Source: Escherichia phage 235Ecol030PP
Sequence record: PP355091.1
Direction: 5' to 3' (one strand)
DNA: 64,000 nucleotides
Position numbers and translations under genes: made by a program. The notes beneath the pieces are model-generated. The model searched no databases. It worked only from the letters and a program-made list of their open reading frames with translations, and had not been told where the DNA came from. Positions 1,042 through 49,021 of this stretch are shown in pieces (within the stretch, counting starts at the first letter, position 1; every line of letters starts with the position of its first letter).

Positions 1042-2282
<1,241 letters not shown>

Positions 2283-3130: not shown

Positions 3131-3504
3131 CGTGATTCCTTAACAAATTTCATAATTTCATTAAATTCATACTCAGCAAGTTTAAGCTGGTGTTCCTTTT
3201 TAATCTTTTTACACTGAGCTTTCCAATCGTGTACACGTTTACGATAATGTCTTCCTTGATACCAGTATCCTACCCAATTTACGGGTACTAATAAAAGTGG
3301 AACTACCAATGGAAGAATTAGCATTAACACAAGTATTTCGCCAGAATCAATATCAGTCATAACATCTAAAACACCTCCAATAATCAATAGAATTACAAAT
3401 GATATAAGTATAACAGGACCTATTAATACATCAGTAGAAATTATCTGGTGCTTTGATTCATACTTCAAAGGTTTACTTGGAAGGTATAGTGATGGTTTTG
3501 ACAT
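3112..3504 (-). CDS. small membrane protein, e.4-like, paralog family member
   Basis: ATG at 3504 (MSKPSLYLPSKPLKY); track ORF starts at TTG 3525; TM-rich; C-terminal motif KFVKESRCK. Confidence 0.6.
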   Translation of the reverse strand: MSKPSLYLPSKPLKYESKHQIISTDVLIGPVILISFVILLIIGGVLDVMTDIDSGEILVLMLILPLVVPLLLVPVNWVGYWYQGRHYRKRVHDWKAQCKKIKKEHQLKLAEYEFNEIMKFVKESRCKSQN

Positions 3505-4083
3505 ATTCTCTACATTCCTTAACAAATTTTTCTAATAATAAATCGCTTTCAAAATTGGGATTTTCCACGAATTTATCAAAAAGATCATCAACAATAGTTA
3601 AGATATTCTTTTTACTAAGAATACGCTTATTTTCATGCTTCGTTTCAGAATCAACTATAAGAGTAAAGAAATATTTCTTGCCCTGAAATTTTACAGTAGT
3701 ATCAATATAGAATAAATTTGACTTTTGTAAATTACGTTTAAACCATGCGTCGCTTAAACTATAAACGCCAAGATAATCATAATCGTCGTTTAAATAACAG
3801 ACCGTCCATTCAGGAGAAACAAAATCAGTAAATTCAACGTCAAAATCGCATATGTTAATAAATGAATTGATTCAATACTGTTAATAAGTATTCCAGGACG
3901 TATTAAAGACTTTTTACCTCTAGAAAATCTTCCAGAAAGACTTTCATCAGTTTCATATGAAGAACCCCAATAATAATTACGTCCTTCTGCCATACGTTTA
4001 AGAGCATTTAATAATTGGTCTGGAACATCAACCTGTCTTTGAAACTCTTCAAACATTGAATTGAAATCACTTTGCATTTTCAT
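3473..4083 (-). pseudogene. frameshift-interrupted ORF (e.5-like), 4th member of paralog family by C-terminal motif
   Basis: ATG 4083 frame open to 3790; a second frame with no ATG/GTG start runs 3871-3473 and ends EKFVKECREYVK; frames join with a 1-nt indel near 3855-3872. Confidence 0.45.
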
Positions 4084-5166: not shown

Positions 5167-5430
5167 TTATTTCATATTATTGAAATATTCTTCTGCGATT
5201 TCGTCGTTATCATGGTAAACTTTAGAAGACAGTTTAACATAACTTTCAGCAGTGAACATGTTAATCACAACCTTTACAGTATACCACTGACCATCTTCAT
5301 TACCCATTACTGCGTAAGTTTCAAACATCGGATGATCAGGACCGATAACTTTAATATCATTCACTGTACGACCAAAATCTTCTGAAACACATTTCATAAA
5401 GAAGTTGAACAGTTCGCCGTAATTATCCAT
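5167..5430 (-). CDS. hypothetical protein (e.8-like)
   Basis: ATG at 5430 with GGAG RBS; track ORF begins at TTG 5442. Confidence 0.65.
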   Translation of the reverse strand: MDNYGELFNFFMKCVSEDFGRTVNDIKVIGPDHPMFETYAVMGNEDGQWYTVKVVINMFTAESYVKLSSKVYHDNDEIAEEYFNNMK

Positions 5431-5474
5431 TTCATTCTCCAAGTTGTTTTCTGTATCAGTAGTTGATAGTTGTA

Positions 5475-5502
5475 TAGTACCATAGAAGAACAGGGATGTA
5501 AA
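5475..5502 (-). promoter_or_regulatory. early sigma70-type promoter (PeSL-like family), copy 2
   Basis: minus strand GTTTAC (fwd 5497-5502) and TACTAT (fwd 5475-5480); shares a ~20-nt core with copies at 1010-1039, 9752-9781, 10115-10144. Confidence 0.5.
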
Positions 5503-5634
5503 CAGTTTTGTGAAAAATTTTTTAAAAAGTTTTGGGGAATTCTAGGGCAAGGAGGGGAAATTAAAGGATAGGATAATATATTATAAAGGGTAGAAACTAA
5601 ATGATGCCTAGAGAGGCCTGGAAAGGCCTAGATA

Positions 5635-5661
5635 CCAAAAAGCCCCAACCTTTTGGTCGGG
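5635..5661 (-). terminator. rho-independent terminator, minus strand
   Basis: minus RNA CCCGACC-AAAA-GGUUGGG stem-loop followed by UUUUU; near-copy at 6193-6221. Confidence 0.6.
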
Positions 5662-5671
5662 ACTAAGAATA

Positions 5672-6144
5672 TTATTTGATTTGTTTAGCAGACCAAATGC
5701 GGTCTTTAATAATTTTTTGGATGTCTTCAACATACTCAAGAGAATGAGCATGTGGGTTATCTTTAAAGCTATGAGCACGAGCTAGCTTTTGGCCTTCAGT
5801 TTTGATTACTAAAAGCTCTTTAAGGATAGCTTCATATTTGGAGATAATTCCTTTAACGATATTTTTTCTTGTGCGACTTTAGGATCTGCTTTAGGAGCAG
5901 GTTTACCCGAAGCCTTTGCAAAAGCAGCGCCAGTAGCAACTAAACTTTTCCAGGCCATACTAACTGCATTTCCCGTAAATCCTTCCGCTTTCATGTCGCG
6001 TGCGAACTGGAATCGTGATTCATCAGAAGCATCTTTGTAAGAATATTTACCCGCTGCAATGGCTGCTTTTGCGACAGCTTGAATTTCGGTGCTAGATGCT
6101 TCATTTAACACCGCTTCATTTAAAAATTGAGTATATGATTTCAT
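5672..6144 (-). pseudogene. CTS-bearing internal-protein-like gene interrupted by frameshift at A6 run
   Basis: ATG 6144, N-terminus MKSYTQFLNEAVLNEA; frame ends at 5809; a second frame continues plausibly to stop 5672 beside terminator; frames meet at fwd T6 run 5862-5867. Confidence 0.5.
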
Positions 6145-6184
6145 CTTATTTCCTGTTTTAATTCGTGGTTTTAATATACTACTA

Positions 6185-6192
6185 TATTTATA
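6185..6192 (-). promoter_or_regulatory. late promoter TATAAATA, minus strand
   Basis: fwd TATTTATA; about 40 nt upstream of ATG 6144. Confidence 0.5.
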
Positions 6193-6221
6193 CCAAAAAG
6201 CCCCAACCTTTCGGTCGGGGC
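6193..6221 (-). terminator. rho-independent terminator, minus strand
   Basis: minus RNA GCCCCGACC-GAAA-GGUUGGGGC with one G.U, followed by UUUUU. Confidence 0.65.
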
Positions 6222-6527
6222 TAAGCCTTGCGGCAACCTTGTCGGGGTTCCACCTGCTAAGGCAAGTGTTTGTACGAAACGCCGGGATTCGAACCCGGTT
6301 ATTAAGCAGTTGACGCTACTCAATATTTTTAAAAGGCCATATCTCGACCATATCCGAACGTTCCGTCAAAAACGCTACTCGGTTTACGGCAAAGATATTT
6401 CCTCGAATCGATAATTCGGTGCGCCGTTTCTGCTGTGATAGTAAAGAGCCAGAACACAGTAAAACTGTGGGAGGAAACTATACTCCAGGGAACATCAGTC
6501 CGACGACTTACCGGTAGCGACCCGGTT
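6222..6527 (-). ncRNA. probable stable small RNA(s) downstream of tRNA-Arg, T4 species 1 / species 2 type
   Basis: no ORF of 60 aa or more; tRNA-like T-arm CCGGGTTCGAATCCCGG (fwd ~6283-6299); ends at terminator 6193-6221; boundaries not determined. Confidence 0.3.
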
Positions 6528-6529
6528 TC

Positions 6530-6880
6530 TTAGTATTCTTTTAAAGCATCAACCTGTTCACGACGTTTACGCCATAAATCAATTACTTCATACGCAGATT
6601 CAGCATTTCGAATTGGACGGCATTTATATAAAGACTTGTGATTTTGATATTGTGTAGATAACGGAATTTTATCTAAAAGGTCTTTACGTTCAAAATATTC
6701 GTAACCATCTAAACCAAATGAACGATTTTTGAGAAATTGCCAATGACCATATTCGTTTTCGACATAAACATAATCTGCATGCTGATAAAGCAAATTAATT
6801 ACACGTTCAGAAATAACAGTATCATTATGATTAAAATAGAATGTTAAATCATGAACTACTAAATAAACATTACCTTTCAT
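6530..6880 (-). CDS. hypothetical protein between stable RNA region and tRNA-Arg
   Basis: 116 aa, ATG at 6880 with GAGGAAA RBS. Confidence 0.6.
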   Translation of the reverse strand: MKGNVYLVVHDLTFYFNHNDTVISERVINLLYQHADYVYVENEYGHWQFLKNRSFGLDGYEYFERKDLLDKIPLSTQYQNHKSLYKCRPIRNAESAYEVIDLWRKRREQVDALKEY

Positions 6881-6898: not shown

Positions 6899-6974
6899 TG
6901 GTCGAGGCAGTAGGGATCGAACCTACGACCCAGGACTTAGAAGGTCCTTGCTCTTCCTTCTGAGCTATGCCCCG
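6899..6974 (-). tRNA. tRNA-Arg (anticodon UCU), CCA encoded
   Basis: cloverleaf read by hand; T-arm GTAGG-TTCGATC-CCTAC; anticodon loop CUUCUAA. Confidence 0.85.
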
Positions 6975-6977
6975 TAA

Positions 6978-7643
6978 TTAAAATTTCATTTTTCGACCTT
7001 TAAACCATCCTTCTGGAATTGGGTCAGTTTTCTTAATACGTTTAGAAACTTTTTCATCTAATGAATGAATCCACATCATACCAAATTGGGAATTCTTTTC
7101 GCCCTGTTGATGTTTATTTCTGGCGTGAGATTCTTTCATTTTATTAATAGTTTCAGGAGTATGATGCTTATTTAAAAATCTGCTATTATTTAAAAATTTT
7201 TCCCTGTATTCAGGAGTTGACCACAAGCGTTTAAATACATTTGAACCATGTTTACGATATTTTTCTTGAAGTAAAATATCATTTTTAAAACGTGACTTAA
7301 ACGATTTAGCTCCTTTTAAGCTAGCATCTTTCTTCTGGTTTAGCATCCCAGGAATATTTACATGATCCCATCCACCTTCACCACCAAGTTTTAAATTATA
7401 CACATCTGGTCTATTTAAAAACTCTTCTGTGACAATATTTTTCTCGGCTTCAAGCATAGATTCTTTATCGTCAAAGAACTCTAATATTTCTTTAGAAAAA
7501 TTTTCTATACCATACTTATCTTGGGCTCTTTTTAATAATTTACCAGAACCCATATATCCATCATCTAAATTTTCGGTAGAATGAGCGCCTATATAGATTT
7601 TATTATTAATTTTATTTGTTATTTTATAAATGTAATGGAACAT
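6978..7643 (-). mobile_element. segB: GIY-YIG homing endonuclease SegB within the tRNA cluster
   Basis: 221 aa; N-terminal YIYKITNKINNKIYIGAHS GIY-YIG motif; located between tRNA-Arg and tRNA-Ile as in T4. Confidence 0.85.
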
Positions 7644-7684
7644 AAATATCTCCTATTTCTAAGAGTATTTATGTTCTCAAAATA

Positions 7685-7756
7685 TGGCCCTGGGTGGAAT
7701 TGAACCACCATCTGGCGATTATGAGTCGCTTGCTTGAACCTTCCAGCTACAGGGCC
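7685..7756 (-). tRNA. tRNA-Ile (anticodon CAU; Met by anticodon alone)
   Basis: acceptor GGCCCTG/CAGGGCC, T-arm GGTGG-TTCAATT-CCACC, anticodon loop CUCAUAA. Confidence 0.8.
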
Positions 7757-7762
7757 TTGATA

Positions 7763-7835
7763 TGCTGATTGACGGAATCGAACCGCCGACGTCCTCATTA
7801 CAAGTGAGGTGCTCTACCTACTGAGCTAAATCAGC
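7763..7835 (-). tRNA. tRNA-Thr (anticodon UGU)
   Basis: D-arm GCTC-AGTAGGTA-GAGC, anticodon loop CUUGUAA, T-loop TTCGATT. Confidence 0.85.
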
Positions 7836-7842
7836 GAAATTA

Positions 7843-7929
7843 CGGAGGCGATAGGATTTGAACCTATGAGTCGCCGGAGCGACTGCCGGTTTTCAAGACC
7901 GGTGCATTAAACCACTCTGCCACGCCTCC
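7843..7929 (-). tRNA. tRNA-Ser (anticodon UGA), long variable arm
   Basis: acceptor GGAGGCG/CGCCTCC, anticodon loop CUUGAAA, T-loop TTCAAAT. Confidence 0.85.
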
Positions 7930-7931
7930 AG

Positions 7932-8005
7932 TCTCCGTGGCAGGATTTGAACCTACGACATTCTGCTCCCAAAGCAGACGCTCTACCAAACTGAGCTACA
8001 CGGAG
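7932..8005 (-). tRNA. tRNA-Pro (anticodon UGG)
   Basis: D-arm GCTC-AGTTTGGTA-GAGC, anticodon loop UUUGGGA. Confidence 0.85.
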
Positions 8006-8017
8006 TAAATTAAATTT

Positions 8018-8089
<72 letters not shown>

Positions 8090-8095
8090 AAACTT

Positions 8096-8182
8096 TGGTA
8101 CGAGAAGTGGGACTCGAACCCACAAGGAAATCATTCCGCAGCATTTTAAGTGCTGTGTCTTTACCAATTTGACCATTCTCGC
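8096..8182 (-). tRNA. tRNA-Leu (anticodon UAA), long variable arm, CCA encoded
   Basis: anticodon loop CUUAAAA, T-arm GTGGG-TTCGAGT-CCCAC, 3' ACCA. Confidence 0.85.
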
Positions 8183-8183
8183 G

Positions 8184-8256
8184 CTGGGAATAAAGGACTC
8201 GAACCTTTGCATCCTGGAATCAAAATCCAGTGCCTTACCAACTTGGCTAATTCCCA
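8184..8256 (-). tRNA. tRNA-Gln (anticodon UUG)
   Basis: acceptor TGGGAAT/ATTCCCA, anticodon loop UUUUGAU, T-loop TTCGAGT. Confidence 0.85.
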
Positions 8257-47253: not shown

Positions 47254-48765
47254 ATGACTGACATTAAAGTACATTTTTATGATTTTAGTCACGTGAGAAT
47301 TGATTGTGAAGAAAGTACATTTCATGAACTCCGTGATTTCTTTAGCTTTGAAGCTGATGGGTATCGTTTTAATCCGAAGTACAGATATGGCCACTGGGAT
47401 GGACGAATCCGTCTTTTAGATTATAATCGTCTTCTTCCATTCGGCTTAGTCGGGCAAATTAAAAAGTTCTGTGATAACTTTGGCTATAAAGCCTGGATTG
47501 ACCCACAAATTAATGAAAAAGAAGAATTATCAAGAAAAGATTTTGATGAATGGCTTTCTAAATTAGAAATCTATTCAGGAAATAAAAGAATTGAACCACA
47601 CTGGTATCAAAAAGATGCAGTGTTCGAAGGATTAGTTAATCGTCGTAGAATTCTTAATCTTCCAACATCTGCAGGTAAATCTTTAATTCAAGCTTTGCTT
47701 GCGCGATATTATTTGGAAAATTATGAAGGTAAAATTCTTATCATTGTTCCAACAACTGCTCTGACAACTCAGATGGCTGATGACTTCGTCGACTATCGTC
47801 TATTCAGTCATGCAATGATAAAGAAAATTGGTGGCGGAGCATCAAAAGATGATAAATATAAAAATGATGCACCAGTCGTTGTTGGTACATGGCAAACTGT
47901 AGTTAAACAACCGAAAGAATGGTTCTCACAGTTTGGAATGATGATGAATGATGAATGCCATCTTGCTACAGGAAAAAGTATTTCATCCATCATATCAGGA
48001 TTAAATAACTGCATGTTTAAATTTGGTCTATCAGGTTCATTACGTGATGGCAAAGCCAATATCATGCAGTACGTTGGAATGTTTGGTGAAATATTTAAGC
48101 CAGTAACGACTTCTAAATTAATGGAAGATGGACAAGTAACTGAGTTAAAAATTAATAGTATTTTTCTTCGCTATCCCGATGAGTTCACTACTAAATTAAA
48201 GGGAAAAACTTATCAAGAAGAAATAAAAATTATTACTGGGCTCAGTAAAAGAAATAAATGGATCGCTAAATTAGCTATTAAGCTTGCACAAAAAGATGAA
48301 AACGCTTTTGTCATGTTTAAACATGTATCGCATGGTAAAGCTATTTTCGATTTAATTAAAAATGAATACGATAAAGTTTATTACGTATCAGGGGAAGTTG
48401 ATACCGAAACCCGCAACGTAATGAAAACCTTAGCTGAAAATGGTAAAGGAATAATTATAGTAGCTAGTTATGGTGTATTTTCTACTGGTATTTCAGTTAA
48501 AAATCTGCATCATGTTGTTTTAGCGCACGGCGTTAAATCAAAAATCATTGTATTACAAACAATCGGTCGTGTATTACGTAAGCATGGTTCTAAAACAGTC
48601 GCAACAGTCTGGGACCTCATAGATGACGCGGGCGTCAAGCCAAAATCTGCTAATACGAAAAAGAAATATGTTCATTTGAACTATCTTTTAAAACACGGCA
48701 TTGATCGTATTCAGCGTTACGCAGATGAAAAATTTAATTACGTAATGAAAACAGTCAATTTATAA
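47254..48765 (+). CDS. uvsW: UvsW DNA helicase
   Basis: 503 aa; Walker A PTSAGKS and DECH box. Confidence 0.93.
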   Translation: MTDIKVHFYDFSHVRIDCEESTFHELRDFFSFEADGYRFNPKYRYGHWDGRIRLLDYNRLLPFGLVGQIKKFCDNFGYKAWIDPQINEKEELSRKDFDEWLSKLEIYSGNKRIEPHWYQKDAVFEGLVNRRRILNLPTSAGKSLIQALLARYYLENYEGKILIIVPTTALTTQMADDFVDYRLFSHAMIKKIGGGASKDDKYKNDAPVVVGTWQTVVKQPKEWFSQFGMMMNDECHLATGKSISSIISGLNNCMFKFGLSGSLRDGKANIMQYVGMFGEIFKPVTTSKLMEDGQVTELKINSIFLRYPDEFTTKLKGKTYQEEIKIITGLSKRNKWIAKLAIKLAQKDENAFVMFKHVSHGKAIFDLIKNEYDKVYYVSGEVDTETRNVMKTLAENGKGIIIVASYGVFSTGISVKNLHHVVLAHGVKSKIIVLQTIGRVLRKHGSKTVATVWDLIDDAGVKPKSANTKKKYVHLNYLLKHGIDRIQRYADEKFNYVMKTVNL

Positions 48766-48777
48766 GGGCTTCGGCCC
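48766..48777 (+). terminator. stem-loop after uvsW
   Basis: GGGC-TTCG-GCCC followed by TTT. Confidence 0.45.
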
Positions 48778-48790
48778 TTTGGAGAAAAAG

Positions 48791-49021
48791 ATGTTACTAG
48801 GATTTAAACAATTTCTTTATGAAGCTTCTATTGATGAATTTATGGGTAAAATTGCCTCTTGTCAAACATTAGAAGGTTTAGAAGAACTTGAAGCTTATTA
48901 CAAGAAAAGAGTCAAAGAAACTGAATTAAAAGATACTGATGACATCTCAGTCAGAGATGCTTTGGCAGGAAAAAGAGCTGAATTAGAAGATTCAGACGAT
49001 GAAGTAGAAGAAAGCTTTTAA
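48791..49021 (+). CDS. uvsW.1: UvsW.1-like small protein
   Basis: 76 aa from ATG 48791 with GGAG RBS; track ORF starts at TTG 48779. Confidence 0.7.
   Translation: MLLGFKQFLYEASIDEFMGKIASCQTLEGLEELEAYYKKRVKETELKDTDDISVRDALAGKRAELEDSDDEVEESF

Follow-up and report, generated by a model that had tools for sequence, protein, structure and literature searches.

Is the small minus-strand gene at positions 5672-6144 of a 64-kb stretch of T4-like phage DNA (Tequatrovirus; this whole stretch is called the window hereafter) truly broken, and how did it come to be so? The gene opens with a capsid-targeting (CTS)-like propeptide and falls into two reading frames that meet at a run of six adenines. The original prediction offered three alternatives for this arrangement, namely a homopolymer sequencing error, a recent inactivation, or slippage-prone expression of an injected effector. 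Of these, recent inactivation, in the form of a truncation to the N-terminal domain, is best supported: the window allele is one substitution and one A away from an intact allele, its downstream frame is undecayed and ~70 other ORFs in the window are unbroken.

The broken gene and its terminator-flanked cassette

The features of the locus are as follows.

6190-6225 (-): upstream copy of a 36-nt repeat, with a terminator hairpin (6222-6199) and T tail, after the rnaC small-RNA region
6185-6192 (-): putative T4-type late promoter, a match to the motif TATAAATA, 41 nt upstream of the ATG
6149-6154 (-): Shine-Dalgarno sequence AGGAAA, read directly from the sequence, 4 nt before the ATG
6100-6144 (-): CTS-like propeptide MKSYTQFLNE/AVLNE/A, with two L-x-E sites
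5809-6144 (-): truncated ORF of 111 aa beginning MKSYTQFLNEAVLNEA, composed of the targeting peptide, N-terminal helical domain, linker and a 17-aa out-of-frame tail, ISLKELSPNMKLSLKSF
5862-5867 (-): A6 run (T6 on the forward strand), where the -1 deletion falls within a recurrent indel hotspot
5672-5863 (-): stranded coding sequence of the C-terminal domain, NIVKGIISKYEA...RIWSAKQIK and stop, 63 codons plus stop in the -1 frame
5632-5667 (-): downstream copy of the 36-nt terminator repeat, with a hairpin (5664-5641) and T tail

This layout bears out the original prediction in its details. The CTS-like start with two LNE/A sites is read at 6144 (-), the TATAAATA motif behind the proposed late promoter lies at 6192-6185 (-), the annotated frame stops at 5809 while a second frame runs on to 5672, the two frames meet exactly at the forward T6 (5862-5867), and a terminator hairpin with a T tail (5664-5641) stands beside the 5672 stop. 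Read from 5875, the second frame encodes RTRKNIVKGIISKYEAILKELLVIKTEGQKLARAHSFKDNPHAHSLEYVEDIQKIIKDRIWSAKQIK and a stop, ending at 5672; the -1 frame reads NIVKGIISKYEAILKELLVIKTEGQKLARAHSFKDNPHAHSLEYVEDIQKIIKDRIWSAKQIK up to the same stop. This stranded frame contains no ATG, GTG or TTG start that would yield an ORF of at least 25 aa. By our own calculation, which considers base composition only, 63 stop-free codons have a probability of ~1% in AT-rich DNA, but the homology evidence presented below makes a chance origin of this frame irrelevant.

Calling the gene the fourth CTS-bearing gene is accurate, because three other minus-strand ORFs begin with MK.Y..F..E (an IPIII-like one reaching to 550, and those at 612-872 and 1042-1323). 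The 93-aa ORF at 1042-1323 (-) has a double cleavage-site layout (.../SILNE/A) like that of the gene studied here, and TATAAATA does not occur in the 90 nt upstream of it.

The region from 5300 to 6500 matched 715 phage records, with a top identity of 99.5%, and for longer stretches of the window no identical record was found among the matches. The gene lies downstream of a cluster of eight minus-strand tRNAs (6899-8256). A search of the window with Rfam returned tRNAs only, and the rnaC/rnaD region upstream of the gene had no family match. Within this neighborhood, tRNA-Arg and the rnaD/rnaC region are separated by a 116-aa ORF at 6530-6880 (-) that belongs to phrog_3355 (unknown function), a position without a gene in T4. 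In the record of phage G4507 (L001), a 94-nt 'tRNA-Lys(ttt)' is annotated at 3972-4065, which corresponds to about 6270-6365 of the window and aligns to the T4 rnaC region; neither ARAGORN nor Rfam calls a tRNA at that place in the window.

The two repeat copies are 94% identical, lie 558 nt apart and are the only copies in the 64-kb window. Both are predicted to fold into stable hairpins (-21.5 kcal/mol, z -4.4, for 6222-6199; -17.1 kcal/mol, z -4.1, for 5664-5641). In T4, rnaC and e.8 have no gene between them, only a single terminator copy, and the T4 sequence aligns on both sides of the gene with an overlap of 35 nt that corresponds to the repeat. The window can therefore be described as T4 plus a 558-bp unit comprising the putative late promoter, the gene and a terminator copy, and this unit is a true insertion/deletion cassette, as the proposal of a terminator-bounded cassette had implied. 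The TATAAATA motif is formed across the junction of repeat and cassette (...TTTTTGGTAT/AAATA..., that is, GGTAT/AAATA) and is kept in all carriers; in phage fPS-65 the same site is also annotated as a predicted late promoter. In SF2-1, F26 and fPS-65, an extra 187-aa ORF and another terminator lie between the CTS gene and e.8 (ORF at 1601-2164, 1867-2430 and 1871-2434 of loci L013, L023 and L024). Cassettes thus appear to stack between rnaC and e.8.

The intact gene and its predicted product

Insertion of one A joins the two frames into a protein of 157 aa that is 100% identical to proteins of phages G4507 and NiC89, whose records annotate one 474-nt CDS for it, so the two frames belong to one gene as had been supposed. 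The repaired protein matches phrog_2280 (unknown function) over residues 1-157 (E 3e-60), and a tblastn search with it matched 511 phage records, 467 of them near full length and in a single piece. The gene is an ortholog of this conserved 157-aa accessory protein. In an alignment of 13 alleles, all in-frame alleles read GAA AAA AAT with seven adenines (A7), encoding E92, K93 and N94 of the intact gene; A7 was found in every clade, including alleles with as little as 76% identity to the window. The window allele differs from those of G4507 and ECP52 by one substitution and one missing A. The occurrence of A7 in all in-frame alleles, together with this near-identity, identifies A7 as the ancestral in-frame state and the window allele as a -1 deletion from it. 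Many records list 'hypothetical proteins' of 97, 111 or 112 aa that are frameshift alleles of this one 157-aa gene. The product of Shigella phage SfPhi01 is identical to that of the window, but the flanks of the two are only 95-96% identical, which rules out that the window is SfPhi01.

Searches for a function returned little beyond the family itself. Pfam gave only sub-threshold noise for the 157-aa protein and no family, Foldseek searches of BFVD and PDB recovered only its own family or non-significant helical bundles with no function, and a profile search of 1.84 billion representatives recovered 13 family members only. Our literature search found no paper naming the phrog_2280 protein and none reporting it in the mature head, as processed by gp21 or as ejected.

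An AlphaFold model built from 7 sequences (pLDDT 73, moderate confidence) predicts an N-terminal domain of three helices (residues 18-30, 41-53 and 59-71), a Pro/Lys-rich linker of low confidence (~72-88) and a C-terminal helical hairpin (88-124 and 132-154). Codons 92-94 of the run sit at the border between linker and C-domain in this model, so all frameshift alleles are expected to yield the propeptide, the N-domain and a short tail. The N-domain recurs in 169-182-aa proteins of Klebsiella and Yersinia T4-like phages with other C-termini, which supports a modular two-domain build. A 161-aa in-frame variant on a Logan contig (P0008) has a linker lengthened by a 12-nt duplication (KADPKADPK) that immediately precedes the A run, indicating that the linker tolerates changes in length.

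At its N-terminus, MKSYTQFLNE/AVLNE/A matches MKTYQEFIAE/A of T4 IPII/IPIII at Y4, F7, L/I8 and E10. Residues 4 and 7 matter for capsid targeting and residues 8 and 10 for processing (PMC9026906). The phrog_2280 protein is thus probably packed into the head and injected with the DNA, so that an uncharacterised gene in ~500 sequenced phages gains a probable role as a further injected protein. The 'injected effector' of the original prediction draws on two features, this N-terminal motif and the late promoter motif. Since ten N-terminal residues are enough for packaging, the truncation is expected to leave packaging and cleavage of the product intact, and the product may be stable or functional. 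T-even internal proteins are first-strike anti-defence and host-range factors; those known or suspected to counter defences include IPI, which acts against GmrSD, and IPIII, which is needed on ECOR17. To our knowledge, IPI alone among them has a known target.

Run length across relatives

Comparison of run length across related phages, which had been proposed as a check, gave A7 in the in-frame genes and recurrent alleles of three other lengths.

A6 alleles, product 111 aa (108 aa in a divergent clade): the window, SfPhi01, F26, an ENA contig (P0006), a Logan contig (P0009), a metagenome contig (L016, 84% identical) and P0037 in a divergent 154-aa clade
A8 alleles, product 97 aa (93 aa for P0031): PYps55T, EC128, SF2-1, teqhal, AUBRB02, ph0021, PsgM02F, P0018 (T4_ev240, G28), FJ1 and a divergent ENA contig (P0031 / L028)
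A9 alleles, product 112 aa: ECO4 and fPS-65

Four of these A6 and A8 alleles are known as proteins (P0009, P0037, P0018 and P0031), and the census as a whole is a lower bound. PsgM02F (OR584013.1, hits H122 and H182) is named a Pseudomonas phage, an odd host label for a T4-like coliphage, and its A8 allele is of Tequatrovirus type.

In a gene tree computed with the run removed, the A6, A8 and A9 alleles were scattered over the branches. In this tree the window allele is separated by 1 nt from A7 alleles and by 6 nt from SfPhi01, SfPhi01 (A6) and ECO4 (A9) are identical apart from the run, and fPS-65 (A9) is identical to an A7 allele outside it. F26, EC128, PYps55T, SF2-1, a metagenome A6 allele and an ENA A8 allele each fall on separate branches. 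The 27 sequences, a sample enriched for variants by the choice of records, thus require at least nine independent changes of run length, both shorter (A6) and longer (A8, A9). Non-A7 alleles make up a few percent of records (3/60 in an evenly spaced sample), and 7 of the 88 records of one flank haplotype are non-A7. The poly-A run is therefore a recurrent indel hotspot on separate backgrounds, and since it has changed length many separate times in relatives, the deletion in the window is most likely a slippage mutation of an ordinary kind, at a hotspot that is unusually busy.

The C-domain frame of every non-A7 allele is free of stops and indels, so phages with the same A6 run keep the frame downstream of it; the outcome named beforehand as a refutation, an equally long run followed by a non-conserved frame, was not seen. 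This frame is under purifying selection in these alleles (pN/pS about 0.03-0.06), and its differences from A7 alleles are overwhelmingly synonymous; the ENA A8 allele, for instance, differs from the nearest A7 allele by 18 synonymous and 2 non-synonymous changes. The lack of stops and indels and the predominance of synonymous change indicate that the frameshifts are young relative to the divergence of the alleles. An intact, constrained downstream frame is compatible with mutations of recent origin that selection removes later, with reversible switching and with artefacts.

Origin of the deletion and comparison with known systems

If the window truly carried A7 and an intact 157-aa gene, and one A had been dropped from the homopolymer during sequencing or assembly, the result would be a single-base difference in a 7-nt run, nearest alleles with A7 (G4507 and ECP52, each one substitution away) and a perfectly intact downstream frame, all of which are observed. 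Nevertheless, such an error is unlikely. The window has 54 other A/T runs of at least 6, A7 runs in genes 22 and 51 among them, yet its ~70 other T4-homologous ORFs are unbroken, and of the 73 T4 ORF products matched in the window only e.5 is broken, by a dinucleotide duplication and not by a homopolymer error. The A6 allele of SfPhi01 was found again in an independent Logan contig (run DRR175055), and truncated 97-aa proteins encoded by A8 alleles occur on 19 NCBI, 15 ENA and 9 Logan contigs (43 in three sources, with independence judged by source and accession list). It would also be an atypical miscall for two adenines to be gained (A9) in a sequence that matches an A6 allele everywhere else. 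Other comparisons point in the same direction: when the A7 run of gene 51, an essential gene, was artificially shortened to A6, the query had no exact match in 361 records, fPS-65 has A9 in the phrog_2280 gene and a normal A7 in gene 51, another A6 run within the phrog_2280 gene never varies, and across ~25 fetched loci with 2-3 kb of flanks the only coding-region frameshift was that at the phrog_2280 run. Two further artificial queries also had no match, namely the frameshift peptide of an A6 version of gene 22 (G-A7-T, E-K-N context), where low-complexity masking is the probable cause, and an A8 version of gene 51, whose flanks were probably too short for a seed after masking; these two outcomes are uninformative, which leaves the set of controls weak. 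Taken together, the reproducible alleles, the clean window, the gene 51 control and the frameshift-free flanks favour real mutations.

Two other loci of the window bear on its integrity in their own right. The e.5 homolog (3476-4083, -) is split near 3851 by a 2-nt AT duplication (ACATATGCG, where T4, G4507 and SfPhi01 have ACATGCG), so that, besides the phrog_2280 gene, another accessory gene less than 2.5 kb away is broken. An apparent frameshift in uvsW relative to T4 was rejected as damage, because uvsW and uvsW.1 are distinct ORFs, set apart by a stop, a hairpin and a new start. At 48720-49020 (+) the uvsW stop is followed by a GC hairpin and then by the uvsW.1 ORF, and the current T4 record has both fused; uvsW.1 begins MLLGFKQFLYEASIDEF, which is loosely CTS-like (F-L-x-E-A).

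Taking A6 as real, expression of both a full-length and a short protein through -1 ribosomal frameshifting or transcriptional slippage on the run might be imagined, since a Lys-tRNA could re-pair on AAA after a -1 slip in G AAA AAA U, with AUA as the next zero-frame codon, and the C-domain frame is open to 5672. This is highly improbable for the A6 allele. The two-frame layout is not conserved, relatives carrying one continuous 157-aa frame with A7; the zero frame, CAA GAA AAA AUA, offers no in-register X XXY YYZ heptamer; there is no upstream Shine-Dalgarno-like stimulator; and the predicted downstream structure is weak (z -2.2) and begins more than 30 nt away rather than at the required 5-9 nt. 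The run is also too short for efficient polymerase slippage, which becomes productive at runs of 8-9 A (PMC1088944). Programmed frameshifting is therefore unsupported for this allele, as is the slippage-prone expression offered in the original prediction. In other phages, A8 alleles could be leaky, and A9 alleles even more so.

More credence, but still not much, is due to a contingency locus in which A7 is maintained by selection and reversible slippage switches the injected protein between two-domain and N-domain-only forms, with N-domain-only variants recurring in lytic T-even phages. Consistent with such a switch, at least nine independent changes in both directions were found in a small sample, all at the tips of the tree and with the C-domain still constrained; A7 is kept in clades with pS of 0.45-0.68; and the run lies exactly at the modelled domain border, so that 'off' alleles would still make a folded N-domain. 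The part that internal proteins play in host range and anti-defence (IPI against GmrSD, IPIII on ECOR17) and the ability of runs of 8-9 A to support productive transcriptional slippage (PMC1088944) point the same way. If the run were such a switch, polymerase slippage on A8 and A9 would give a mixture of both protein forms, and the population would hedge against hosts with defences that are triggered or blocked by the C-domain. However, an equal pattern results from a mutational hotspot in a dispensable gene if the variants are purged later, and retention of the run needs no selection, since GAA AAA AAT consists of codons that an AT-rich genome prefers. Reversion has not been observed, no phenotype is known and non-A7 alleles amount to just a few percent of records. 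We consider selection for switching rather unlikely.

The reading that we favour, and think probably correct as a whole, is a recent and genuine truncation by replication slippage at a poly-A hotspot in a cassette gene, leaving an N-domain-only product. A one-gene cassette of putative late promoter, gene and terminator copy has been inserted at the terminator after rnaC in a Tequatrovirus. Its gene is predicted to encode a capsid-targeting propeptide of the T4 type, followed by a helical N-domain, a disordered linker rich in Pro and Lys, and a hairpin of helices at the C-terminus. The change from A7 to A6 at the linker/C-domain border most likely arose by DNA polymerase slippage during replication, and with one A lost from the run translation would end after 111 aa, keeping the propeptide and N-domain and losing the C-domain. 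In other phages of the genus the run has changed to A6, A8 or A9 repeatedly and recently. The natural series of A6, A8 and A9 truncations against A7 could serve as isogenic-like material in the search for a host-dependent phenotype.

Slippage by one base in a dispensable phage gene is an ordinary event, of a kind that is classical for T4. More noteworthy here are the third IP-like genomic site, the two-domain build and the repeated independent changes in run length across the genus. Streisinger-type frameshift hotspots at A runs are familiar from the genetics of the T4 rII and lysozyme genes. The phrog_2280 run resembles them in that one base is gained or lost in an A run and the same site is hit repeatedly, but here the variation is natural, among sequenced isolates rather than selected laboratory mutants, and includes +2 (A9) alleles. 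Campylobacter phages carry hypermutable poly-G tracts in genes. These tracts are likewise intragenic homopolymers whose length differs between close phages and shifts the reading frame, whereas the run described here is a short poly-A (7) in the gene of a putative injected protein, not of a receptor-binding protein, and its reversibility and benefit are only postulated.

IPI, IPII and IPIII of T4 are CTS-targeted, cleaved by gp21 and injected with the DNA. Like their genes, the phrog_2280 gene encodes a small protein, is non-essential, is preceded by a late promoter motif and is present or absent between close relatives, and the mature sequence of its product is unrelated to other internal proteins. 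In contrast to them, it lies outside the classical loci (ipI, ipII/ipIII), between rnaC and e.8, and its predicted product has two L-x-E sites and a two-domain build and shows no similarity in sequence or fold to IPI, IPII or IPIII.

The closest parallels to the cassette are the PeSL mobile regulatory cassettes of T4-type phages and the repeat-flanked IP loci of Repoila 1994 (PMC2839356). As in PeSL cassettes, a regulatory stem-loop is directly repeated on either side of a single accessory gene, and one copy remains at the empty site, seen in T4, as expected of recombination between the repeats. Unlike in PeSL cassettes, the repeat is a rho-independent terminator only, and a late TATAAATA at the junction takes the place of a sigma-70-like early promoter inside the repeat. 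The cassette site also differs from the repeat-flanked IP loci in that it is neither of the two classical ones.
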